A stretch of 64,000 nt of DNA from an uncultured archaeon. Its GTDB lineage: Archaea > Hadarchaeota > Hadarchaeia > Hadarchaeales > WYZ-LMO6. Below, piece by piece: positions 77 through 12,035 of this stretch. A program made the translations under genes and the position numbers. Under the pieces are notes generated by a model. That model did not search any database. It had not been told where the DNA came from and saw only the letters and a list, made by a program, of their open reading frames with translations. Position 1 is the first letter of the stretch, and every line of letters starts with the position of its first letter. The stretch lies in the NCBI GenBank assembly GCA_938074535.1, contig CALJER010000008.1:44954-108953 (forward strand). Reading direction: 5' to 3'.

Positions 77-125
77 GGTTCTTGCGGGCATAAATCTTTT
101 TTTTTGAAGGGGCCAAGAAAAACCG

Positions 126-1322
126 ATGGGAGATAAGAAGGTGGTGGTCCTGGGAGGGGGCGGGGTGGTGGGAAGAACCGCCGTGAAGGACCTGGCCAAG
201 AGCGGGGTCTTCTCGGAGGTGGTGGTGGCCGACAAGGAGGTGGAGAAGGCGAGGGAGCACCTGGAGGGAGTTCCCCGCCTCTCCTTCGTGAAGGCAGACC
301 TCACGGAGTTGTCCATCCTCAGGGAGGTGATAAAGGGGGCGGACGTGGTTCTGAACACCGTAGGACCCTTTTACAAGTTCGGCCCCTTGCTCACGAGGGA
401 GGCCATACGGACCGGGGTGAACTACGTGGACATCTGCGACGACTACGAGGCCACGCTGGAGCAGCTGAAGATGGACGAGGAGGCGAGGAAGAGGGGTGTG
501 ACCGTCCTCACGGGCATGGGCTCTTCACCCGGCGTGGCCAACGTGGTGGCCAAGTTCTGCTCCCAGTTGCTGGACCAGCCGGAGGAGATCCACATCTACC
601 ACATCCACGGGGGGGAGCCGGAAGAGGGGCCCGGGGTGATCTACCACCGCATCCACTACATGACGGGAAAAATCCCCATGCTGAAGGATGGGAAGATGGT
701 GTACTTCGGGTTCTTCAGTGAGGAAGGGAGAAGGGAAATAGAGGAAGTGGACTTCTACGAGCCCATAGGGGTGGCGAAGGTTTACCCCTACCCGCACCCG
801 GAGACCATCACCCTCCCCAGGTACATCCCGGGCCTCAGGAAGGTCACCAACAAAGGGTCCGTCCTACCCCTGGAATACTACGAACTGCTGCGGGAGGCCG
901 TGAAGATGGGTTTAGCCGATGAGAAGCCCCTGAAGGTGGGAGGGGCCTCCGTGGCCCCCATCGACTTCCTGGTCTCCTTCGTCCTCTCCAAGAGGAAGGA
1001 ATATGCGAGCAGGCTGCCTGAACCCGTGGGTTGCCTGAAGATCGTGGTGAGGGGGAGAAAGGGGGGAAAGAGGATGGAGTACAGGTTCGCCATCCCCTCC
1101 AGGGGTGCGGGTATGGGGGAGGGAACGGCCATTCCCGCCTCGGTGGGCACGCAGATGGTGGCCAGAGGGGAGATCGAGGAGAAAGGGGTCCTCCCCCCGG
1201 AGGCCTGCGTGGATCCCATGAAATTCTTCGAGGAGGCGAGGAGCAGGGAGGGGATGGGCGGCGTCAGGATCATCTTCGAGAGCGTGGACGAGGAGGGGAG
1301 GGTGACCAGCATACCCCTTTGA
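126..1322 (+). CDS. Saccharopine dehydrogenase-like NAD(P)-dependent oxidoreductase (lysine 6-dehydrogenase / carboxynorspermidine synthase family)
   Basis: Rossmann VVLGGGGVVG, NTVGPFY, YVDICDD, GMGSSPG, HPETITLP, GVLPPE motifs. Confidence 0.85.
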   Translation: MGDKKVVVLGGGGVVGRTAVKDLAKSGVFSEVVVADKEVEKAREHLEGVPRLSFVKADLTELSILREVIKGADVVLNTVGPFYKFGPLLTREAIRTGVNYVDICDDYEATLEQLKMDEEARKRGVTVLTGMGSSPGVANVVAKFCSQLLDQPEEIHIYHIHGGEPEEGPGVIYHRIHYMTGKIPMLKDGKMVYFGFFSEEGRREIEEVDFYEPIGVAKVYPYPHPETITLPRYIPGLRKVTNKGSVLPLEYYELLREAVKMGLADEKPLKVGGASVAPIDFLVSFVLSKRKEYASRLPEPVGCLKIVVRGRKGGKRMEYRFAIPSRGAGMGEGTAIPASVGTQMVARGEIEEKGVLPPEACVDPMKFFEEARSREGMGGVRIIFESVDEEGRVTSIPL

Positions 1323-1359
1323 CCCAAGCCTTTTTTTCCTCCAGAAAACCACTCTTTTG

Positions 1360-2658
1360 ATGTTCAAGTGGAGGGAAAAGGAGTACGAGGAGCTTGAGGC
1401 TCAGCCCGAGGCCCTCCCCGAGGGGGTGGATCCCGAGGAATACGTCATCGCCACCTACTTCCTCTCCCTCCCCTCCGCCCTGGATCCCTGGGAGGTGGCT
1501 AGGGCCCTGGCCATAGAGCAGAGCACGGGAACCTGGGTGCCCGTTCCCGGGGAGACCCCCGAGGTGAGGAAGAAGCACGTGGCCAAAGTGGTGGGACTGT
1601 ACGAGGCCCCCTATCCGGAAGTCCTCTCCCCCACGGAGGCCAGGGAGAGGAACTATGTGGTGCAAATCGCCTTCCCGCAGGTGAATTTCGGGAAACAGAT
1701 CCCCATGCTCCTCTCCACGGTGGCGGGGAACCTGATGTGCTGGGAGAAGATCAAGCTCCTGGACCTCCGCTTCCCCAAGAGCTTCGTGGAGGGCTTCGGG
1801 GGCCCCAAGTTCGGGATAGAGGGGATAAGGAAGCTGCTGGGAGTGGAGGAGAGGCCCCTGATCAACAACATGATCAAGCCCTGCACCGGCTTTACACCCG
1901 ACGTGGGTGCGAGGCTGGCCTACGAAGCGGCGGTAGGGGGAGTGGACATGATCAAGGACGACGAGCTACTGGGCAACCCCTCCTTTAACCCCATAGAGGA
2001 GAGGGTGCCGAAGTACATGGAGGCTCTGGACAGGGCGAACAGGGAAAAGGGGGAAAAGACCCTCTACACGGTCAACATCACGGACGAGGCCTCCAGGGTG
2101 ATGGAGAACGCGGACAGGGCCATAGAGCTTGGGGCGAACGCCCTCATGATCAACTATCTCACCGCCGGAATCTCCCTGCTCAGGGAGCTGGCGGAGGATC
2201 CAAGCATCAACGTCCCCATCCTGGCCCACATGGACTTCTCCGGCACCATGTACGTCTCCCCCTACTCAGGCCTCTCCTCCTCGCTCCTGCTGGGGAAGCT
2301 GCCCAGGCTGGCGGGTGCCGACATCTTGGTCTACCCAGCACCCTACGGGAAGGCCCCCTTCATGAAGGAGAGATACGTGAGGATAGCCCACCACCTGACC
2401 TTTCCCCTCTACCACCTCCGCCCCACCTTCCCCATGCCCAGCGGGGGGATCACGCCCTCCATGGTGCCCGAGGTGGTGGGGGATCTGGGGAAGGACATCG
2501 TGATAGGGACGGGGGGAGGGATCCACGCCCACCCCATGGGTCCCAGGGCCGGAGCCAGGGCCTTCAGGCTGGCGGTGGAGGCGGTGATGAGGGGGATGAG
2601 CCTGCAGGAGATGGCCAAGGAGCACGAGGAGCTGAGGGTGGCCCTGCAGATGGGCTGA
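1360..2658 (+). CDS. RuBisCO-like protein (form IV RLP)
   Basis: AIEQSTGTW, GPKFG, IKPCTG, DMIKDDE (carbamylated Lys motif), MPSGG, GGGIHAHP. K177, R295 and H327 equivalents are substituted. Confidence 0.92.
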   Translation: MFKWREKEYEELEAQPEALPEGVDPEEYVIATYFLSLPSALDPWEVARALAIEQSTGTWVPVPGETPEVRKKHVAKVVGLYEAPYPEVLSPTEARERNYVVQIAFPQVNFGKQIPMLLSTVAGNLMCWEKIKLLDLRFPKSFVEGFGGPKFGIEGIRKLLGVEERPLINNMIKPCTGFTPDVGARLAYEAAVGGVDMIKDDELLGNPSFNPIEERVPKYMEALDRANREKGEKTLYTVNITDEASRVMENADRAIELGANALMINYLTAGISLLRELAEDPSINVPILAHMDFSGTMYVSPYSGLSSSLLLGKLPRLAGADILVYPAPYGKAPFMKERYVRIAHHLTFPLYHLRPTFPMPSGGITPSMVPEVVGDLGKDIVIGTGGGIHAHPMGPRAGARAFRLAVEAVMRGMSLQEMAKEHEELRVALQMG

Positions 2659-2667
2659 GGGGGTTCC

Positions 2668-4167
2668 TTGGGGTACATCCTGGCCCACGACCTGGGGACG
2701 GAGCTCAACAAGGCCGCCCTGGTGGACGAGGAAGGGAGGATAGTCGCCTACTGTACCCAGGAGTACCCCGTCTCCTATCCCAGGCCGGGGTGGGCGGAGC
2801 AGGATCCGGAGCTCTGGTGGGAGGCCGTCAGGGAAACCACGAAAAAGGTGCTGGAGCTGGCGGGGATCAAACCGGGAGAGGTGGAGGCGCTGGTCTTCGA
2901 CAGCATGATGTACACGCTGGTGGCGGTGGACCGGGGAGGAAGACCGCTCAGGCCGGCCATCCTCTGGCTCGACACCAGGGCGAAGGCCCAGGCGGAGGAG
3001 CTGATGGGAAGCCTGGACCTGCTGGGGATGCTGGAGAGGGGGGTGATCCCGCCCACCTCGGCCAAGGACATCACCCCGAAGATCCTGTGGGTGAAGCAGG
3101 AGGAGCCGCACGTTTTCGAGAAGGCCTGCTTCATCGACAGCAAGGACTACCTGGTCCACCGGTGCGTGGGGGAGTTCTACACCGACTGGAGCTGCGCCAG
3201 CCTCTTCTGCCTCTTCAACTTCAGGGAGAAGAGGTGGGAGGAGGAGCTGGTGGAGGAAATGGGCCTTTCCCTGGAAAGGCTCTCCAGGCCCGTGAAGAGC
3301 ACGGAGGTGGTGGGGAACCTCACGGAGGAAGCCTCCAGGGAGCTTGGACTGCCCAGGAAGGTGGAGGTGGTGTGCGGGTCCGGGGACGCCACCGCGGTGG
3401 CGGTGGGAGCGGGGGGACCCCACCTGTACGTGGGGACCTCGGCCTGGATAGGTGCCCACGTGGAGGAGCCCCTCTTCGACCTGACCGGCGTGGGCAGCAT
3501 CTGCTCCGCCGATCCCTCCAGGTTCTTCCTGATAGGGGAGATGGAGAACGCCGGGGCCTGCCTGAAGTGGTTCAGGGAGACCCTGGCCAGGGAGGAGAAG
3601 GAAAGGGCGGAGAAGGAGGGAAAAGGCCCCTACCAGCTGCTGGACGAGCTGGCCTCCGGTGCGGAGGCCGGGTCGGGGAAGCTCCTCTTCCTCCCCTGGA
3701 TGATGGGGGAGAGGTGCCCCTTCACCCAGTCCACCGCCAGGGGGGCCTTCCTGAACCTCACCTTCGGGCACACCAAAGGGCACCTGGTGAGGGCGGTGCT
3801 GGAAGGGGTGGCCTACCACATGAGGTGGATCCTGGAGGTGGTGGAAGGGATGGGGCTCTCCCTCCCCTCCATCAGGGCCTGCGGCGGAGGGGCTAAGAGC
3901 GGGGTCTGGCTCCAGATCTTCGCCGACGTGATGGGGAGGAAGGTGGAGAGGGTCTCCTCCCCGCACCACGTGGGCTCGCTGGGAGCCGCCACCCTTGCCA
4001 GGGTAGGTCTGGGAAAGACGGACTTTTCCTCGGCGGAGAGGTCCGTGAAGGTGGAGGGGGAGTTCCTCCCCTCGGAGGAAAACCGGGACATCTACGACAG
4101 GATGTACGAGGAGTTCAGGGGGATGCAGGGGAGGCTGTCGGAGGTCTTCGAGCGCCTCAACACCTAG
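2668..4167 (+). CDS. FGGY-family carbohydrate kinase (xylulokinase-like)
   Basis: AHDLGT, PGWAEQDP, ILWLDTR, FLPWMMGERCP, RAVLEGVA, GGGAKS. TTG start 9 nt after the RLP stop. Confidence 0.9.
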   Translation: MGYILAHDLGTELNKAALVDEEGRIVAYCTQEYPVSYPRPGWAEQDPELWWEAVRETTKKVLELAGIKPGEVEALVFDSMMYTLVAVDRGGRPLRPAILWLDTRAKAQAEELMGSLDLLGMLERGVIPPTSAKDITPKILWVKQEEPHVFEKACFIDSKDYLVHRCVGEFYTDWSCASLFCLFNFREKRWEEELVEEMGLSLERLSRPVKSTEVVGNLTEEASRELGLPRKVEVVCGSGDATAVAVGAGGPHLYVGTSAWIGAHVEEPLFDLTGVGSICSADPSRFFLIGEMENAGACLKWFRETLAREEKERAEKEGKGPYQLLDELASGAEAGSGKLLFLPWMMGERCPFTQSTARGAFLNLTFGHTKGHLVRAVLEGVAYHMRWILEVVEGMGLSLPSIRACGGGAKSGVWLQIFADVMGRKVERVSSPHHVGSLGAATLARVGLGKTDFSSAERSVKVEGEFLPSEENRDIYDRMYEEFRGMQGRLSEVFERLNT

Positions 4168-4586
4168 ATGTCCACGACCGCCTGGACGACCGTCCTGTCC
4201 TTCCCCCTCCTGACCTCCATCAGGTGGTAGGTCACGGCCTTGACCGCCGTTCTTCCCTCGTGCTTCCTCGGATCGAACCTCTCCCCCCAGGCCCTCCCCC
4301 TCAGCTTCCACCTGCCGCCCTCCTCCTCCACCTCCACACGGAAGCGGGAGAAGAGGAGGCCTTCGGCGTCCCTGAAGTAGAGGAGCCTGTCCAGCCAGTC
4401 GTAGAGGAGGGCCTGCTCGTCCTCCGCCTCCAGCTCCACCCCCACCTCCTCCCGAGCCTCCACCCTGCCCGTGTCCGTCATGACCTCGAAGAGGGCCAGG
4501 GCAGCGTTCTCGAAGGCCTCCCCCAGGTCCCTACCGTAGGCCCTGAAGCCCACGTCCGAGGGATGCTCCACCCACTCGAACTTCAT
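4164..4586 (-). CDS. Archease (RtcB tRNA ligase cofactor)
   Basis: EHPSDVG N-terminus, VKAVTYH, C-terminal VVDI. Start set at ATG 4586. Confidence 0.92.
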   Translation of the reverse strand: MKFEWVEHPSDVGFRAYGRDLGEAFENAALALFEVMTDTGRVEAREEVGVELEAEDEQALLYDWLDRLLYFRDAEGLLFSRFRVEVEEEGGRWKLRGRAWGERFDPRKHEGRTAVKAVTYHLMEVRRGKDRTVVQAVVDI

Positions 4587-4617
4587 CTTCCCAGCTTGGA
4601 GGATGGGGGGTAAAGGG

Positions 4618-5019
4618 TCATCGGCGGCCCCTCCTCTCCCTCTCCAGCAGCCTTCCAAGCTTCTCGTCCAGCTCCCTGATCCTTGCCTCCAGCGCCTCCG
4701 TCCCGGGAAGGCTGGTGCCGCGGAGGATGAGGCCTGCCAGCAGACCTATGAGGCTGGCGTAGAGACAAATCCCGGAGACCATCAGACCCATCGCCAGGAC
4801 CTTTCCCCCCGTGGTCACCACCACGATGCTCCCGAAGCCCACCGTGCTCTCGATGGAGAGGGCCAGGAAGAGGGCGTCCAGGAAACCCTTCAGGTTGGGG
4901 TTCTCGCCGCGCTCCACCGCATAGAGCACCAGCGCCCCCACCACCGTCACGAGAAGGAAGACCAGAACCACATAGCCCAGCCTGCTTCTCCTCAGAAAGC
5001 CCAGCACCCTTCTCACCAA
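4618..5019 (-). CDS. Small two-TM potassium channel (KcsA-like pore)
   Basis: Two hydrophobic helices flanking pore helix FLDALFLALS and filter STVGFG, with a C-terminal coiled-coil-like tail. Confidence 0.8.
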   Translation of the reverse strand: MVRRVLGFLRRSRLGYVVLVFLLVTVVGALVLYAVERGENPNLKGFLDALFLALSIESTVGFGSIVVVTTGGKVLAMGLMVSGICLYASLIGLLAGLILRGTSLPGTEALEARIRELDEKLGRLLERERRGRR

Positions 5020-5064
5020 CCTCCCACATCCTGGATGTTTGGGCCTTCCTAAATACTCCGGTGA

Positions 5065-6192
5065 TCAGCCCTTGAACTTCACGAACCTCTTCCACACCTC
5101 CCTGGCCTTCGGATGGTGGAGATGGTCCAAAGCCGTGCCCCTTGCCTCCCTTATCCCCATCCAGTCCACCAGCTCCCTGAACCTTCCTCCCGCCAGCCCA
5201 TCCGCCACCAGGGCGTAGCCCTGCGCCGTTTCCTTGGTGAGCCTCGCCCCCTCCAGTCCACCCACTTCCCTGATCCCGCCCAGCCTGCGCTCCAGCTCCT
5301 CCCTGATCCTCCCTATCCTCGCTAGCCTCCCGGAGACCAGGAGCTCCCTCGCCCCCCCGACCGAGACCCTCATGGAAGCCACGGCCTTCTCTATTCCCTC
5401 CATCATAGCCTCAAAAGCCAGCTCGAACCTCTCCCCCCTTCCCTCCGCGAACCTCTCGGGGTCCATTTCCCCCGTGATGGTGGCCGCGCCCCCCACGAAG
5501 ACATCCCCCCTCTCCCACCTCCCCACCAGCTGCACCAGCTCCCCATCGAAAGAGGAAGCCGTGAGGAAGCCTATTCCGGGAAAGGTGGTTCCCCCTATCC
5601 CGTCCACGATCCTCCCTCCCTCCACGCCCAGCACCGCGTTGTAACCGAACCCCAGCTCTGCCAGGATGAAGGAGACCTCCCCGTAGGGGATGCCGAGCCT
5701 GGAGGCCTGGGAGTGGACACCCAGCACCGCCACCGCCATCTTGTCCGCCGTCCCCATGTCCAGCTTGTTGACCTTCCTGAACTCTGGGACCGTGGGCAGC
5801 TCCACCACCGAGGGGATGAAGACCACCGGAAGTCCCTCCCTCCTCATCCAGAGGCAGGCCTCCGTCATGTTCTTGTAGAGGACCGCGCCGAAGAGCCCCT
5901 GCTCGATGGCCTTCAGGACCTCCTCCTTGGTGGTGAGGAGGATGTAGTTGTAGTACCACTGCTCGAACCTCTCCTCCGGAACCTCCTCTATCCTCGTCAG
6001 CTCCACCCCGTACCCGGAGGGTCCGGCGATGAGGTCCACGGGGAGGGCCTCCTCAACCGCCTCCCTGAAGAGCTCTGGCCTCCTCACCAGCTCGGCGTTG
6101 TCCAGCGATCTCTCGTAGACCACCCTGCCGTCCTCCAGACCGCAGAGGTCCATGCTCTTGGTCCCGGGGTCTATCCCCAGCACCCTCACCAT
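5065..6192 (-). CDS. DUF1464 family protein (ASKHA / butyrate-kinase-like)
   Basis: GIDPGTKS, AGPSGYG, NKLDMGTADK, ELGFGYNA, DGIGGT. Confidence 0.85.
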   Translation of the reverse strand: MVRVLGIDPGTKSMDLCGLEDGRVVYERSLDNAELVRRPELFREAVEEALPVDLIAGPSGYGVELTRIEEVPEERFEQWYYNYILLTTKEEVLKAIEQGLFGAVLYKNMTEACLWMRREGLPVVFIPSVVELPTVPEFRKVNKLDMGTADKMAVAVLGVHSQASRLGIPYGEVSFILAELGFGYNAVLGVEGGRIVDGIGGTTFPGIGFLTASSFDGELVQLVGRWERGDVFVGGAATITGEMDPERFAEGRGERFELAFEAMMEGIEKAVASMRVSVGGARELLVSGRLARIGRIREELERRLGGIREVGGLEGARLTKETAQGYALVADGLAGGRFRELVDWMGIREARGTALDHLHHPKAREVWKRFVKFKG

Positions 6193-6207
6193 CGAGTCCC
6201 CTCCCTC

Positions 6208-6546
6208 CTAGGTCCCCTCCAGCCTTATCCTGTGCCCCACCCTCACCCCTCCCCTCCTGAGGGTGTCCGGAGGAAACTCCAGCAGGACCTCGGAGCCCCT
6301 CGGGGCCAGGCAGAACCTCCAGGGCTTCATCCTCCTCACCACCTTCACCGCCCTGCCGTCCTTCAGGAAGAGGAGGTCCAGGGGGAAGCGCATGAGGCAG
6401 GTGTGAACGTGCAGACTTCCCCCCCTGAAGAGGAGGGTGGTGGGCTCCTTCCTGAGCATCTGACCCTTCAGCCTCTTCCAGAAGCCCTCCGCCCTCTCCA
6501 CCTCCTCCGCCAGCACGCGACCCGTGTCCTCATCCACCACCTTCAT
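6208..6546 (-). CDS. DUF192 family protein
   Basis: A..FWKRLKG.M, HTCLMRFPLDLLFL, KPWR, VLLE pattern. Confidence 0.8.
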   Translation of the reverse strand: MKVVDEDTGRVLAEEVERAEGFWKRLKGQMLRKEPTTLLFRGGSLHVHTCLMRFPLDLLFLKDGRAVKVVRRMKPWRFCLAPRGSEVLLEFPPDTLRRGGVRVGHRIRLEGT

Positions 6547-6607
6547 CGATGAACCACCAGATTTTCCCTCACATAACCCTTAAGGAGAGGGGGGTGAAAG
6601 GAGAAAG

Positions 6608-7378
6608 ATGGAAACCGAGATCGCCTCCAGGATCATAAAGGAGTTCTGCCAGGACCTGCTGGAGAGCCTGAAGCTGGACGTGGTGGTGGCCGGGGCGGGT
6701 CCAGCTGGGCTCACCGCGGCGAGGTACCTGGCCAGGAGAGGGAGGAAGGTGGCCGTGTTTGAGAGGAACCTCTGGGTGGGGGGAGGAATGTGGGGCGGAG
6801 GGATCCTCTTCCCAAAGCTCGTCGTGGAAAGGGAGGCCGCGCCCCTCCTCCAGGAGGCGGGAGTGAGGCTGAGGGGGGAGGGTCCCCTCCTGACGGCGGA
6901 TGCGGTGGAGGTGGTGGCCAAGTGCACCTCCTCAGCCCTGGAAGCCGGTGCCAGGATCTTCGTGGGGATGGAGGTGGAGGACCTGGTGGTGAGGAACTCC
7001 AGGGTCTGTGGGGTGGTCCTGAACTGGAGGGCCGTGAATCTGGCCAGGATGCATGTGGACCCCATAGGGGTGGAGGCCGGGGTGGTAATCGATGCCACGG
7101 GGCACGAGGCCTTCCTGGCGAGGGTCCTGGAGAGGAAGGTACCGGGCGTGAGGTTCCCCACCCCCACCGGGAAAATCGTGGGGGAGGGACCCATGGACGC
7201 TGAAAAAGCTGAGAAGGAAATTGTGGAGAACACGAAGGAGATCTACCCCGGACTGGTGGTGGCGGGGATGACGGCCGGAGCCGTCTTCGGCTCTCCCAGA
7301 ATGGGTCCCGTCTTTGGGGGGATGCTGCTCTCGGGGAGGAAAGCCGCCGAGCTCGCCCTGAAGCTCCTGCGGGCCTGA
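6608..7378 (+). CDS. thi4: Sulfide-dependent adenosine diphosphate thiazole synthase
   Basis: VAGAGPAGL, GGGMWGGG, MHVDP, DATGH, PRMGPVFGGMLLSG. Confidence 0.93.
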   Translation: METEIASRIIKEFCQDLLESLKLDVVVAGAGPAGLTAARYLARRGRKVAVFERNLWVGGGMWGGGILFPKLVVEREAAPLLQEAGVRLRGEGPLLTADAVEVVAKCTSSALEAGARIFVGMEVEDLVVRNSRVCGVVLNWRAVNLARMHVDPIGVEAGVVIDATGHEAFLARVLERKVPGVRFPTPTGKIVGEGPMDAEKAEKEIVENTKEIYPGLVVAGMTAGAVFGSPRMGPVFGGMLLSGRKAAELALKLLRA

Positions 7379-7423
7379 GCCCCTCAGGGCTGCCAGCGGC
7401 GACCAAAGCAGGGATGGGGAAGG

Positions 7424-7508
7424 CGCCGGGGGAGGGATTTGAACCCTCGGGACCCAAAGGGTCACACGCTCTCAAGGCGTGCGCCTTACCTGGCTTGGCT
7501 ACCCCGGC
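7424..7508 (-). tRNA. tRNA-Ser (anticodon TGA)
   Basis: Reverse complement GCCGGGGTAGCCAAGCCAGGTAAGGCG-CACGC-CT-TGA-GA-GCGTG, long variable arm, GGTTCAAATCC, CCCCGGC-G. No intron. Confidence 0.95.
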
Positions 7509-7581
7509 CCAGAAAAACTTGGAAGGGGAGGGTATAGAGCTGACGAAAACCTCTTTTAGTCGGGACCGCCCCGGTGGAAGG

Positions 7582-7917
7582 ATGGGAGCCGGGCTGGGGG
7601 ACATTTCCAGGCTGGCCTGGTATCTGGAGCTGCTGGCCTTTTTCTGCGTGGGATTGGGGGTGGTCCTGCTGGGCGTGGACGCGTACCTGGCGGGGGCCGC
7701 GCAGCAGCTCTCCGAGCTGGGGGCCGAGACGGAAGGGGTGGAGAGCACCCTCGACTCCGCCGTGGCGGTGGTCCTGATCCTGGGAACCATCATGCTGGTG
7801 TGCGGCGGGGGATGCTGGTACCTGAGCCACAGGATCCAGAAAATCATGGAGGAGTCCTCCGAGGACCTGAGAACCATAGAGGTGAGGAGGGCCTCCCGCC
7901 AGGCCCCGAGGGAGTAG
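7582..7917 (+). CDS. Small two-TM membrane protein, unknown function
   Basis: Two long hydrophobic stretches and host-like codon usage. Start moved to ATG 7582 to avoid the tRNA. Confidence 0.6.
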   Translation: MGAGLGDISRLAWYLELLAFFCVGLGVVLLGVDAYLAGAAQQLSELGAETEGVESTLDSAVAVVLILGTIMLVCGGGCWYLSHRIQKIMEESSEDLRTIEVRRASRQAPRE

Positions 7918-7931
7918 GTCCTCTCCCAAGG

Positions 7932-7962
7932 TTTATACATCGAAACCGATATCGAAAGTGAT
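7932..7962 (+). promoter_or_regulatory. TATA box plus putative PadR operator (two tandem 12-mers)
   Basis: TTTATA at 7932, then ATCGAAACCGAT (7939-7950) and ATCGAAAGTGAT (7951-7962) directly before the padR ATG. Confidence 0.65.
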
Positions 7963-8493
7963 ATGCTCGGGTGGATGCGGGGCAGGGCCGTGCCCAGGGG
8001 CCTGCTGCGCTACTACGTGCTGGAGTCCCTGGGCGAGAAACCCATGTCGGGCTCGGAGCTCATGGACGAGATCGAGGGGAGGAGCGAGGGGTGCTGGAGG
8101 CCCAGCCCAGGCTCCATCTATCCCCTGCTGGCCTGGCTCCAGGACACGGGTCACGTGGAGGAGATGCCGCGCGACCGGAGCGGAAGGAGGCGCTACAGGC
8201 TCACGCCCAAGGGGAAAAAGCTCCTCCGGGAGGAGAGGAGGGTGTGGACGAGGGTGGGGGGGACGGACTTCTTTGTCCCCCCCTTCGGCCCCCCCTGGCA
8301 CAGGCTGCCCCCCGAGAGGGCGGCGGAAATGAGGAGGGCGATGCGCAAGGTGGTGGTCGCCTTCATGGAAGCCATGGGAACCCTGGCGGAGGAAGCCTCG
8401 GAGGAGGCTCTGGAGGGGATGCGCAGGATCCTGGAGGAAACGGCTGAAAGGTTCGAGGAGGTGAGCCGGAAGCTCAGGGAGGGGAGGAAATGA
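7963..8493 (+). CDS. PadR-family transcriptional regulator
   Basis: LRYYVLESL..KPMSG.EL, WRPSPGSIYPLL, RRRYRLTPKG. Confidence 0.92.
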   Translation: MLGWMRGRAVPRGLLRYYVLESLGEKPMSGSELMDEIEGRSEGCWRPSPGSIYPLLAWLQDTGHVEEMPRDRSGRRRYRLTPKGKKLLREERRVWTRVGGTDFFVPPFGPPWHRLPPERAAEMRRAMRKVVVAFMEAMGTLAEEASEEALEGMRRILEETAERFEEVSRKLREGRK

Positions 8494-9482
8494 GAGAAAT
8501 GGTGAGAGCGGAGGAACTCACCAGGGTCTTCAACGGCCTCACCGCCGTGGACCACGTCACCTTCGGGGTGAGGGAGGGGGAAATCTTCGGTTTCCTCGGG
8601 CCCAACGGGGCCGGAAAGACCACCACCATCCACATGCTCACCACCGTCCTGAAGCCCACCGGAGGCAGGGCGGAGGTTTGCGGCTACGATGTGGTGAAAG
8701 AACCGGAGAAGGTGCGGAAGTCCATAGGGGTGGTGCCCCAGGAGTACACGGCGGACGAGGACCTGACCGGGTACGAGAACGTGATGCTCTGTGCGGACCT
8801 CTACGGCCTCCCCAGGGAAGAGGGCAGGAAGAGGGCCCTGGAGCTCCTCTCCCTGGTGCAGCTGGAGCCCTTCAAGGACAAGAGGGTGGAGACCTACTCT
8901 GGAGGGATGAGGAGGAGGCTGGAGCTGGCCTGCGGACTCATCAACCGCCCGAAAGTGCTCTTCCTGGACGAGCCCACGCTGGGGCTGGACGTTCAGACCA
9001 GGGCCTCCATCTGGGAGCACATCCTCTCCCTGAGGGAGAACTTCGGGATGACGGTCTTCCTCACCACCCACTACCTGGAGGAGGCCGACCACCTCTGCGA
9101 CCGCATCGCCATCATCGACCACGGGAAAATCGTGGAGGAGGGGAGCCCGTCGGAGCTGAAGGACTCGCTGGGGGGAGACCTCCTCACCCTGGAGTGCGAG
9201 GGGGAGGGAGTGGAGGAGATCCTGAGGGCCCTGGAGGGGGTGAGGGAGGTGAAGGCGGAGGGGAGGGAATACAGGGTGAAGGTTACCAGGGGGGAAACCG
9301 TGGCACCCCTCCTCCTGAAGGCCCTGGGCGAGAAGGGCCTGACGGTCAAACGCCTCTCCCTCGCGAAGCCCACCCTCGACGAGGTCTACCTGGAAAAGAC
9401 CGGGAAGTCGCTCAGGGACCAGGGGGAGAGCCCGGAGGAGGTTATAAAACAGAGGGTGACCCTGTGGAGGGCCAGGAGGTAG
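8490..9482 (+). CDS. ABC exporter ATP-binding subunit (DrrA-like)
   Basis: GPNGAGKTT, YSGGMRRRL, LFLDEPT, TTHY. Confidence 0.95.
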   Translation: MREMVRAEELTRVFNGLTAVDHVTFGVREGEIFGFLGPNGAGKTTTIHMLTTVLKPTGGRAEVCGYDVVKEPEKVRKSIGVVPQEYTADEDLTGYENVMLCADLYGLPREEGRKRALELLSLVQLEPFKDKRVETYSGGMRRRLELACGLINRPKVLFLDEPTLGLDVQTRASIWEHILSLRENFGMTVFLTTHYLEEADHLCDRIAIIDHGKIVEEGSPSELKDSLGGDLLTLECEGEGVEEILRALEGVREVKAEGREYRVKVTRGETVAPLLLKALGEKGLTVKRLSLAKPTLDEVYLEKTGKSLRDQGESPEEVIKQRVTLWRARR

Positions 9483-10303
9483 GGGGCCGTCCCCTGCAGG
9501 GCTTTCTCGCCCTGACCAAAAGGGAGCTGAAAAAGTGGTACAAGGAACCCCTCCTCCTGCTCATCACCGTCCTCCAGCCCCTCATCTGGATGGTCTTCCT
9601 GGGGAAGGCCATGAACCTGGGGGCAGTTTTCGGGGGAGGGGTACCGCCCGAGCTGGCCAGGGGACTCATGCTCCGCTCCTTCGGGACCACCGACTACTTC
9701 TCCTTCATGGCCACGGGGATGATCGCCGTCACCTGCCTCTTCACCACCATGTTCACCGGGTTCTCCATCATCTGGGACCGCAGACTGGGCTTCCTCAACA
9801 AGGTCCTGAGCACCCCCGTTTCCAGGGCCTCCGTGATCTTCTCCAAGGTCGTCTACGCCACCCTTCGCTCTTCCTTCCAGGTCCTCATCATCCTGGTGGC
9901 CGCCTTCGCCCTGGGGCTGAAGGTGGGCCCCGGCTTCCATCCCCTCCACCTGCTTGGGGTCTTCCTGGTCGCCTTCATGGTGTGCGTGACCTTCTCCTCC
10001 CTCTTCCTCATGCTGGCCCTCAGGTCCACCAGGTGGGAGGCCCCCATGGCCATGGTGAACCTGATGCTCATGCCCCTGATGTTCGCCTCCAACGTCTTCT
10101 TCCCCCTGGAGCTGATGCCAGGCTGGCTGAGGGCCATAGCCAGCGTGAACCCCCTCTCCTACACCAACGATGCCGTGAGGCAGTTCACCATCTGGAGGCT
10201 GGACAGGGGCGCCCTCTTGAGGGACCTGGCCTACCTGGGGCTCTTCAGCCTGACCATCTCTTCCCTGAGCGTCTACCTGGCCAAGAAGTACCTCTCCCGC
10301 TAA
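9464..10303 (+). CDS. ABC-2 type exporter permease (DrrB-like)
   Basis: Six TM segments, [22 protein letters not shown] at 9464 with upstream GAGGGTGA. Confidence 0.88.
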
Positions 10304-10686
10304 CCCTTGAGCTCTATCTTGATGTGGACTTCCGGCGGGATCTGCAGGCGCATGAGCTGCCGCATCGCCCTCTCATCCGCCTTCACGTAGATGAGCCTTT
10401 TATGTATCCTGAGCTCCCACTTATCCCAGGTGGCCGTTCCCTCCCCATCCGGAGCCTTCTTCACGGGCACCACGATGCGCTTGGTGGGAAGGGGGATGGG
10501 ACCCCAAACCACCCTCTCCCCTCCCTCCTGGGCCTTCTTCGCCTGGGCCATGATGCGCTTGGGGGGGAGGGGAATGGGTCCGGACATCTCCACTCCGGTG
10601 CGCTGGGCTATCTCCTTGATCTGCGCACATATCTCATCCAGCTTCCTGTGATCCGTACCGGACAGGTGGATCTTGGCCCGCTGCAT
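10300..10686 (-). CDS. rps10: 30S ribosomal protein uS10 with an internal 26-aa tandem duplication
   Basis: [18 protein letters not shown] twice, [21 protein letters not shown]. Confidence 0.95.
10426..10581 (-). repeat. Diverged in-frame tandem duplication (2 x 78 nt) in uS10
   Basis: [26 protein letters not shown] vs [26 protein letters not shown]. Confidence 0.88.
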
Positions 10687-10726
10687 CCAGGCACCCCTCA
10701 CCTTTTACCGGGAGGGTAAAAAAGGT

Positions 10727-11989
10727 TCACTTGGCCTTCACCACGTCTATACACACGCCCGCCGCGATGGTCATACCCATGTCGCGGATCGCAAACCTGG
10801 CGAGCTGGGGTATGTCCGAAACCTTCTCGATCACGAGGGGCTTCGTAGGCTTTACCCTGATGGTGGCCATGTCGCCCTTCTTTATGAACTGGGGATGCTC
10901 CTCCACCACCTGGCCCGTCCTCGGATCCAGCTTGTTGATAATTTCCGTGATCTGGCAGGCCACCTGGGCGGTGTGAACGTGGAACACGGGCGTGTAGCCC
11001 ACCGCTATGGCCGTCGGGTGCTGCAGGACTGCTATCCTGGCCACGAACTCGCTCGCCACCGTCGGCGGGGAGCTCGGCAGGCCCGCCACGTCACCCCTCC
11101 TGATCTCGTTCTTGGCTATCCCCCTTATGTTGAACCCTATGTTGTCCCCCGGTTCAGCCTTGGGGATGGACTCGTGGTGCATCTCTATGGACTTCACCTC
11201 GCCCGTCTTCCCGGAAGGCTCGAGCACCAGGGTATCACCCACCTTGAGCACCCCCGTTTCCACCCTGCCCACCGGCACCGTCCCCACACCCGTGATGGAG
11301 TACACGTCCTGGATGGGAATCCTCAGGGGCTTGTCTATGGGCTTCGGAGGTATCACGAAAGAGTCGAGGGCCTGCAGCATGGTGGGGCCGCTGTACCACT
11401 TCATCTTCTCGCTGGGCTTCGTCACGTTCTCTCCGTGGAAGGCCGACACGGGAACGAAGGGGAACTTGTCCGCGTTCCTGAACCCCACCACTCTCAGCAT
11501 CTCCATGATCTCCGACCTCAGCTTCTCGTAAACCTCCTTCTTGTACTCCACCAAGTCCATCTTGTTGACCGCCACCGCCAGCTGCCCCACCCCCAGCGTG
11601 AAAGCAAGGGCGGCGTGCTCCCTCGTCTGGGGCATGATCCCATCGTCCGCAGCCACCACCAGGATGCCCGCATCCGCCTGACTGGCCCCCGTGATCATGT
11701 TCTTGACGAAGTCCCTGTGGCCGGGGGCATCTATGAGGGTGAAGTAATACTTGTCGGTCTCGAACTTCCTGTGGGCCAGGTCAATGGTGAGGCCGCGCTC
11801 CCTCTCCTCCTTCAAGTCGTCCATCACCCAAGCGAACTTGAAGGCCTTCCCCTTGTCCCCTAGGGCCTCGAACTTCTTTATCTCCTCCTCCTTCACCACC
11901 CCCGTCTCGAAGAGCAGCCTCCCCAGGAGGGTGGACTTGCCGTGGTCCACGTGCCCCATCGTCACCAGGTTCAGGTGTGGTTTGGCCAT
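10727..11989 (-). CDS. tuf: Elongation factor 1-alpha
   Basis: [36 protein letters not shown]. Confidence 0.98.
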
Positions 11990-12021
11990 CTTCTCGACCT
12001 TAGTCTCGATTGTCCTCCCGA

Positions 12022-12035
12022 ATTTAAATCTTTTT
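12022..12035 (-). promoter_or_regulatory. Putative BRE-TATA promoter for tuf
   Basis: Minus strand AAAAAG-ATTTAAAT about 32 nt upstream of the tuf ATG. Confidence 0.5.

Follow-up and report, generated by a model that had tools for sequence, protein, structure and literature searches.

At the start of a 64,000-nucleotide stretch of DNA from an uncultured archaeon of the Hadarchaeales (contig CALJER010000008.1, positions 44,954 to 108,953; the whole stretch is called the window below), three neighbouring genes encode a saccharopine-dehydrogenase-like (SDH-like) oxidoreductase, a RuBisCO-like protein (RLP) and an FGGY carbohydrate kinase. An RLP, a kinase and an amine enzyme recurred together in many uncultured anaerobes, and this set probably marks an uncharacterised metabolic route. 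We consider the chances somewhat better than even that the three genes are one metabolic module for a small compound bearing hydroxyls and an amino group. The combination of an RLP with a kinase and an oxidoreductase is a known theme, of which the module in the window is a new version. Added here are the genome-level complementarity of two kinds of amine enzyme, class-wide co-occurrence counts and a negative control for MtnA.

All three open reading frames (ORFs) lie on the forward strand: the SDH-like NAD(P) oxidoreductase (398 aa) at 126..1322, the RLP at 1360..2658 (432 aa from the ATG, with an in-frame TTG at 1357) and the XylB-like kinase (499 aa, TTG start) at 2668..4167. With the RLP ATG at 1360, gaps of 37 nt and 9 nt separate the RLP from the SDH-like gene and from the kinase, as an earlier note on this DNA had read them. 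The gene families named in that note were borne out by Pfam. The SDH-like protein matched Sacchrp_dh_NADP (PF03435; 6.6e-18, 65.7 bits) and Sacchrp_dh_C (PF16653; 5.4e-10, 40.3 bits), and the RLP matched RuBisCO_large (PF00016; 1.3e-50, 172.9 bits) and RuBisCO_large_N (PF02788; 4.6e-12, 46.7 bits), all above the gathering score. The kinase matched FGGY_N (1.3e-50, 172.8 bits) and FGGY_C (1.7e-33, 116.5 bits). In the source assembly (1.2 Mb, 53 contigs, 93.6% complete) the RLP was the sole PF00016 gene and, by profile search, the kinase the sole PF00370/FGGY gene.

The active site of the RLP was analyzed in an alignment of 89 family members, made up of 10 clade members and 79 full-length representatives. 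The representatives were drawn from a search of 1.84 billion proteins and labelled by the NCBIfam cut-offs that they passed, and the columns were anchored on form III rows that passed their NCBIfam cut-off and had the canonical pattern. The active-site positions of this alignment are given in spinach numbering, and the residue roles are those known from RuBisCO. The form III rows carried the canonical 20-site pattern ETWNIKKKDEHRHHKMSGGG, and the window RLP and all ten sampled clade members carried ETWNMKCKDEH[M/L][S/A/T]VKASGGG. The window RLP has E60, T65, W66, N123, K175, K201, D203, E204, H294, K334, S379, G381, G403 and G404, with M173, C177, M295, S298, V327 and A335 as replacements (T173M, K177C, R295M, H298S, H327V, L335A). 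All positions usually tied to activation, enolisation and CO2 handling (E60, N123, K175, K201, D203, E204, H294, K334 and S379) were thus kept in the clade; these same residues, together with C177, M295 and the missing H327, had been called in the earlier note, and the alignment confirmed each of them. Replacements in the clade were confined to K177, the ligands of the second phosphate (R295, H298 and H327), T173 and L335, and were mostly non-polar. The replaced second-phosphate site and K177 bear out the statement that the protein is not a ribulose bisphosphate (RuBP) carboxylase. Across 18 bacterial and archaeal clade members (60-90% identity), E53, N124, K173-P-C175, K199, D201, E202, H290 and K331 were invariant. 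Outside the clade, the only rows of the 89 that kept E60, N123 and K334 together were those of true RuBisCOs, of OiaX-like decarboxylases and of some unlabelled sequences. With the exception of the apionate decarboxylase group, no characterised RLP row in the alignment retains as much of the carboxylation machinery as this clade.

The placement of the RLP was investigated with family models, a structural model and a tree. The two MtnW models of NCBIfam ranked first but were not passed (PRK09549, 378.8 bits against a cut-off of 409; TIGR03332, 337.4 against 513.6), and the form III model TIGR03326 gave 279.7 bits against 497.45 and the OiaX model NF042437 194 against 700. The best solved relatives by sequence were the Bacillus subtilis and Geobacillus kaustophilus enolases (5e-87 and 1e-86). 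The AlphaFold model (pLDDT 82.4) matched RuBisCOs and RLPs with Z 38-43, the top match being 2zvi (Z 42.9, rmsd 3.2 over 378 residues, 39% identity). The scores of MtnW (Z 42-43), form III RuBisCO and the Chlorobium RLP (both Z 41) span no more than 2 Z units, and function can therefore not be read from the fold. In a FastTree phylogeny with midpoint root, the RLP clade comprised 14 rows (support 93) and was separate from the 10 MtnW rows, which formed a clade of their own (support 100); the two clades lay inside a 50-row super-group (support 96), with the form III and OiaX-like rows outside. By its sequence, the window RLP is a form IV protein of a kinase-linked clade beside, not inside, MtnW. 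Clustering with MtnW, which the earlier note had raised, was not found: the RLP branches outside the fully supported MtnW clade, stays below both MtnW cut-offs and has Asn at the position of the catalytic Lys. Any of several unlabelled sister clades in the tree could be the DeepYkrW group, that of the Rhodospirillum rubrum methylthioribulose-1-phosphate isomerase.

Other identities were examined. A true form III RuBisCO is excluded by the TIGR03326 score, by the replacement of R295, H298, H327 and K177 and by the tree position among RLPs; against the OiaX 3-oxo-isoapionate-4-phosphate decarboxylase stand the NF042437 score and the place of OiaX-like sequences in the other half of the tree. Identity across the clade was 60-66% and its members came from Chloroflexota, Caldisericia, Asgard, Bathy-, Hadarchaeales and Archaeoglobi genomes. 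The closest RLP (95% identity) was encoded in a Candidatus Hadarchaeales metagenome-assembled genome (MAG) with the locus in identical order, and 2,982 of 7,999 scored candidates matched the RLP at E <= 1e-30. In one Jordarchaeia MAG (L027, 560-2168) the RLP match was in two segments, 599-1831 and 1881-2168, the second of which repeats part of the C-terminal region; this may be a partial duplication or a mis-assembly.

The conservation of the gene neighbourhood was investigated in a one-genome-per-species collection, in which 550 stretches encode a relative of the RLP. The best-scoring 80 of the 550 loci were mapped by tblastn and crude ORF clustering, and the counts therefore lean towards close relatives; one locus (L035) was dropped for lack of an intact RLP ORF, leaving 79. 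The kinase lay within 7 kb of the RLP in 48 of the 79 loci, and in 33 of these 48 the gap was at most 94 nt between ORF limits. An SDH-like gene was near the RLP in 24/79 loci (within 154 nt in 20 of the 24) and a class-III aminotransferase in 25/79, both amine enzymes being present in only one locus. The full set of SDH-like gene, RLP and kinase was found in only 19/79 loci. Forty loci had at least 4 kb on either side of the RLP. Among these well-flanked loci, 13 had a kinase and an aminotransferase, 12 a kinase and an SDH-like gene, three only an SDH-like gene, three only an aminotransferase, two only a kinase and seven no partner gene; the combination of SDH-like gene and aminotransferase did not occur (0/40). 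The mutual exclusion of the amine enzymes in this subset had a Fisher p of 3e-5. Fisher tests overall gave p values of 1e-10 to 3e-5 and ignore shared ancestry, so that their significance is overstated.

The order of the genes differed between lineages: SDH-RLP-kinase in Hadarchaeales and Bathyarchaeia, SDH-RLP in Archaeoglobi, kinase-RLP-SDH in Dehalococcoidia, aminotransferase-kinase-(gene)-RLP in Anaerolineae and kinase-RLP-aminotransferase in one Tissierellales MAG and one Longilinea MAG, while in Thorarchaeota an SDH-kinase pair lay on the opposite strand, 4-5 kb from the RLP. The same families recur beside the RLP in dozens of genomes from distant lineages, far beyond what chance would give, and the linkage of the three genes, on the conservation of which the earlier note depended, holds across bacterial and archaeal phyla. 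The same note had spoken of an archaeal pathway. The module does occur in archaea, but it is not specifically archaeal, most related loci being from Chloroflexota. The RLP-linked aminotransferases belonged to at least three subfamilies (PRK05769-like, HemL-like and ArgD/putrescine-like), which indicates independent recruitment. In several Anaerolineae loci an MFS transporter gene precedes the aminotransferase and hints at uptake.

The two amine enzymes were also complementary at the level of whole genomes. All five genomes without an aminotransferase at the RLP locus carried an SDH-like orthologue (46-50% identity), in four of them elsewhere in the genome. In the five genomes with an aminotransferase at the RLP locus, the best SDH-like matches had 35%, 29%, 24% and 28% identity, or were absent in one, giving 5/5 against 0/5. 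The host of the window encodes three class-III aminotransferase paralogues; with no more than 33-37% identity to the RLP-linked enzymes, these were rejected as orthologues. Co-occurrence was counted in an even draw of 121 genomes from the class of locus L014 (Anaerolineae), with orthology assigned by identity thresholds. A strict-clade RLP (>760 bits) was found in 10/121 genomes, and each of these ten also had a kinase orthologue (>=60% identity). The PRK05769-like aminotransferase orthologue (>=64% identity) was found in seven genomes, all among the ten with a strict-clade RLP, and two of the remaining three had a HemL-like aminotransferase. The involvement of an amine, which the earlier note had suggested from the family of the first gene, is supported by the class-III aminotransferases that take the place of the SDH-like gene in other lineages.

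The SDH-like protein was only distantly related to solved structures, namely 4ina (1.1e-16), the carboxyspermidine dehydrogenase 8deb (1.5e-12) and PH1688 (3abi, 9.5e-8), the last being a lysine 6-dehydrogenase. No NCBIfam equivalog came near its cut-off, the carboxynorspermidine synthase model giving 31 bits against 800. The solved relatives make or break C-N bonds at aldehyde carbons. The two-domain architecture is common to the window enzyme and to carboxy(nor)spermidine dehydrogenase, saccharopine reductase and L-lysine 6-dehydrogenase, but similarity to these enzymes is distant (E 1e-16 to 1e-7) and the window enzyme has His-rich motifs of its own. The motifs, at residues 157-177 and 220-227 of the protein encoded at 126-1322, are near-invariant in its clade (H159, H161, H174, R175 and H177; Y220-x-Y-P-H-P-E-T). 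We do not know them from saccharopine reductases, and they may form a putative substrate or metal site. Asp36, at the end of beta-2, was invariant in 25/25 SDH-like orthologues. In Rossmann folds an Asp after beta-2 goes with a preference for NAD, the cofactor more usual in oxidative roles; under this general rule the invariant Asp36 suggests NAD rather than NADP, and hence oxidation.

The best family models for the kinase were XylB (TIGR01312; 326.8 bits, under the cut-off of 380.25) and GntK (266.9 bits); its best match in the PDB was Escherichia coli XylB (2itm, 5.8e-60). FGGY kinases phosphorylate terminal hydroxyls of ketoses, polyols and aldonates. In two MAGs the kinase beside the RLP was split into two ORFs (L043, 5375-6876; L081, 296-1728), which could be due to a frameshift or an assembly error.

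From these data we infer the chemical steps of the module, their order, their direction and the kind of substrate. In the first step the SDH-like enzyme, probably NAD-linked, would catalyse the interconversion of an amine (primary or secondary) and a carbonyl, the likeliest reaction being the oxidation of a -CH2-NH- group to an aldehyde; a class-III aminotransferase would take this step in other lineages. The interchange of an SDH-fold enzyme and an aminotransferase is best explained if both do the same amine/carbonyl interconversion. The XylB-like kinase would then phosphorylate a terminal hydroxyl of the carbonyl product. In the third step the RLP would bind the monophosphate through the first-phosphate site (G381, G403, G404, T65 and W66) and the carbamyl-Lys/Mg2+ centre (K201, D203 and E204), with a non-polar pocket (M295, S298, V327, M173 and A335) in place of the second-phosphate site, and would take the proton next to the carbonyl to give an enediolate. 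From this pocket one would expect a substrate whose single phosphate is close to the carbonyl and whose other end is non-polar. The reaction may go beyond enolisation, since E60, N123 and K334 are retained; the enediolate might undergo isomerisation or a C-C step ((de)carboxylation or cleavage), either of which would yield central metabolites.

Several known systems resemble the module in part. The MtnW/YkrW enzymes (B. subtilis 2zvi, G. kaustophilus 2oek/2oem) and the window RLP have the same fold (Z 42-43, 38-39% identity), and in both the carbamyl-Lys/Mg site, K175 and H294 are kept and the second-phosphate site is lost. The MtnW rows carry G60, K123, P295, L327 and S334; unlike them, the window RLP has E60, Asn123, K334 and an invariant Cys177, and its gene neighbours are a kinase and an amine enzyme rather than mtn genes. 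Position 123 corresponds to the catalytic Lys98 of G. kaustophilus MtnW. Form III RuBisCO (Pyrococcus horikoshii 2cwx, Thermococcus kodakarensis 1geh) is alike in fold (Z 41.2), and the window RLP matches it at 14/20 active-site positions, including all those usually assigned to enolisation and carboxylation, but K177C, R295M, H298S and H327V remove the second-phosphate site and the protein branches among RLPs. Acid and branched sugars are degraded by pathways with RLPs, such as OiaX/OiaT in D-apionate catabolism and the RLP oxygenase of hamamelose. The logic of these pathways is that proposed for the window module: a carbonyl is made, phosphorylation follows, and then the RLP acts. The OiaX-like rows also keep E60, N123 and K334, but unlike the window RLP they retain R295 and H327 and lie in the other half of the tree; moreover, the window module would make the carbonyl by an amine-handling enzyme and not by a hydroxyl dehydrogenase, and the kinases of these pathways are not known to be of the FGGY family. 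RLPs of Archaeoglobus MAGs (62-63% identity) fall in the clade and have an SDH-like gene directly upstream. The clade may correspond to the IV-Aful lineage, that of the Archaeoglobus fulgidus RLP (probably AF1587), which we treat as a lead only. To our knowledge no function has been assigned to the IV-Aful lineage.

Several observations weigh against the proposed module. The SDH-fold enzymes of known function use amino-acid or polyamine aldehydes, not sugars, and a charged amine on the substrate of the RLP itself would be hard to reconcile with the non-polar distal pocket. No partner gene was found in 23/79 loci, many of them with short flanks, and in 7/40 of the well-flanked ones. In the class sample a kinase orthologue was also present in 7/111 genomes without a strict-clade RLP, and the HemL-like aminotransferase is not specific to the RLP, with two of its six holders having a strict-clade RLP and four lacking it. 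One Theionarchaea genome had no good kinase match. Asgard genomes encode two FGGY types: a distant one (32-35% identity to the window kinase), which is paired with the SDH-like gene several kb from the RLP, and a closer one (45% identity) at another place in the genome; the partner kinase of the RLP may therefore differ between lineages. These Asgard pairs were seen at L050, L070, L076 and L078 and at G004:C20:1890-4751 and G005:C33:72782-75646, often with a PNPOx-like gene too. No experiment or transcript data were found for any clade member.

The nearest characterised relatives of the RLP are the MtnW enzymes of its own super-group, and the first alternative starts from them. The module could be a variant of 5'-methylthioadenosine or 5'-deoxyadenosine salvage, in which the kinase makes a 5-deoxy- or 5-methylthio-pentulose 1-phosphate that the RLP isomerises or cleaves; the methyl or methylthio tail would sit in the non-polar pocket, and the amine enzyme would turn the keto product into an amino acid such as methionine. 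Fuculo- and rhamnulokinases do phosphorylate omega-deoxy ketoses, and the retained first-phosphate site and non-polar distal pocket of the RLP agree with such a substrate. MTAP (292 bits, cut-off 274.85) and MtnA (352.4 bits, cut-off 279) are encoded 2 kb apart on another contig of the assembly, in which the RLP is the sole RuBisCO-family gene, and the assembly also holds one FucA-like class II aldolase. In this context methylthioribulose-1-phosphate and 5-deoxyribulose-1-phosphate should be made, which keeps a salvage-type substrate among the candidates. With MTAP and MtnA present, though, no kinase is needed, and the FucA-like aldolase able to close the dihydroxyacetone phosphate shunt is already there. 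MtnA was above its cut-off in all ten other RLP genomes examined, but it was present in 112/121 genomes of the class sample regardless of the RLP; the co-occurrence is therefore uninformative and was dropped as evidence for methionine salvage. No mtn gene adjoins the RLP in any of the 80 mapped loci, and the absence of adjacent methionine-salvage genes reported in the earlier note held in ~9 kb upstream and 12 kb downstream of the three genes. Class-III aminotransferases and SDH-fold enzymes are not known as the usual methionine-forming enzymes either, and we regard the salvage variant as unlikely. That the RLP is an ordinary MtnW, the 2,3-diketo-5-methylthiopentyl-1-phosphate (DK-MTP-1-P) enolase, is far less probable and close to excluded. 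JGI annotations name many relatives so, and PRK09549 and 2zvi are the best family model and the best structural match; both model cut-offs are missed, however, form III RuBisCO and the Chlorobium RLP come within 2 Z units of that match, all 10 rows of the MtnW clade carry K123 where the window RLP has N123, E60 and K334 replace G and S, and mtnB, mtnX and mtnD are missing among the neighbours in the window and in the mapped loci.

The direction of the module can also be turned round. In a biosynthetic version, a sugar would first be phosphorylated and then rearranged by the RLP, so that an aldehyde or ketone becomes available for amination by either amine enzyme; the product would be an amino-polyol phosphate for a cofactor or a lipid head group. 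The module is found in very small genomes (1.2-1.5 Mb), where housekeeping roles are likelier, and carboxyspermidine dehydrogenase, which is the nearest SDH-fold structure of named function, works reductively. A. fulgidus AF1587, annotated as RuBisCO, is reported to be strongly induced in autotrophic growth on H2/CO2 (PMC3949148), which would favour biosynthesis if AF1587 belongs to the RLP clade. Against this stand the invariant Asp36, which suggests NAD, the MFS transporter beside the operon in some Anaerolineae and the patchy spread in the class (10/121), which is more in keeping with an accessory catabolic trait than with an essential biosynthesis; we give this direction the same low probability as the salvage variant. 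Rather unlikely, too, is that the clade acts as a RuBisCO-type C-C enzyme for a monophosphorylated ketose, which would enolise its substrate and then add or remove CO2 or cleave the chain by means of the retained E60, N123, K175, K201, H294, K334 and S379. Its substrate would be the phosphate of a ketose that ends in a non-polar tail, such as a 5-deoxy- or 5-substituted pentulose 1-phosphate from the FGGY kinase, and the clade would, if so, be a living intermediate between isomerase-type RLPs and RuBisCO, with only the second-phosphate site differing. Finally, the adjacency might be a lineage-specific accident of three genes in unrelated pathways. A run of T residues between the SDH-like gene and the RLP could end transcription, and the 23 loci without partner genes would agree with it, but the recurrence of the families in shuffled orders across bacterial and archaeal phyla and their strong co-occurrence at genome level already disfavour this view, and we consider it highly improbable.

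Within the preferred single module, the local sequence offers some candidate signals, all on the forward strand. An A/T-rich stretch at 90..105 (ATAAAT followed by a T-run), ~21-36 nt before the ATG at 126, is a candidate archaeal TATA element of a near-leaderless transcript. The divergent intergenic region before the SDH-like gene measures 49 nt, or 95 nt if the upstream gene starts at an inner ATG. Seven T residues at 1331..1337, downstream of the SDH-like stop codon (1320-1322) and ahead of the RLP start at 1360, could be a putative terminator, an internal promoter element or both. A Shine-Dalgarno-like GAGGGGG at 2657..2663 overlaps the RLP stop codon, ends 4 nt before the kinase TTG and suggests translational coupling from the RLP to the kinase, the two genes being probably co-translated. 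A 681-aa antisense ORF across the RLP and kinase (2266-4311, reverse strand) was rejected as a gene; its Pro/Gly/Arg-rich translation and 65% G+C point to a compositional artefact.

Since the upstream gene is divergent and the downstream archease gene convergent, the three-gene unit stands alone. The upstream gene is the first of a four-gene cluster of the 2-hydroxyacyl-CoA dehydratase/activator type, which occupies 2-76 of the window on the reverse strand and continues in L001 at 6202-12030. The cluster holds two HGD-D genes (2-hydroxyglutaryl-CoA dehydratase D-component) and two BcrAD/BadFG activator ATPases; a 236-aa gene without a name and a CbiA/MinD-type ATPase also belong to it, followed by an anaerobic ribonucleotide reductase. 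It is common to the closest Hadarchaeales relative and was not found in other RLP lineages. Downstream, the window encodes archease, a small K+-channel-like protein, DUF1464, DUF192, a Thi4 thiazole synthase and a PadR regulator with an ABC transporter (4164-9482) and, from ~10.3 kb, a block of ribosomal-protein, EF-1alpha, NusA and RNA polymerase A'-A'' genes, none of which is kept beside the RLP in the other mapped loci. When further conserved pathway genes were sought near the RLP in the mapped loci, only lineage-specific neighbours were found: FTHFS/FolD/FTCD, a GHMP kinase and a 332-aa protein without a name in Thorarchaeota, MFS, a low-molecular-weight (LMW) phosphatase and an HD hydrolase in Anaerolineae, and 3-hydroxyacyl-CoA dehydrogenase and enoyl-CoA hydratase in Jordarchaeia. 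In the Thorarchaeota-type loci (L034, L050, L058, L065, L070-L072, L076, L078 and L079) the RLP divergently adjoins formate-tetrahydrofolate ligase, FolD and formiminotransferase-cyclodeaminase, and the conserved ~332-aa protein that follows the RLP has no Pfam match.

In full-text searches of the literature, no publication was found in which an RLP is connected with an FGGY kinase, with an aminotransferase or with a saccharopine-dehydrogenase-like gene, and recent large RuBisCO surveys left RLPs out (PMC12663927, PMC13454268). The placement of the clade corrects a common mis-annotation, many members being labelled DK-MTP-1-P enolase or ribulose bisphosphate carboxylase. RLPs are the main source of insight into the origin of RuBisCO chemistry, and each clade solved so far gave a new reaction. 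The present clade is large, with relatives at 550 places in the one-genome-per-species collection, spans both prokaryotic domains and is very well conserved. Its partnership with a kinase and interchangeable amine enzymes offers a concrete, testable handle in the form of three soluble enzymes, which makes the module of real interest to enzymologists, and it points to a flow of metabolites in anoxic sediments and hot springs that is absent from current pathway maps.

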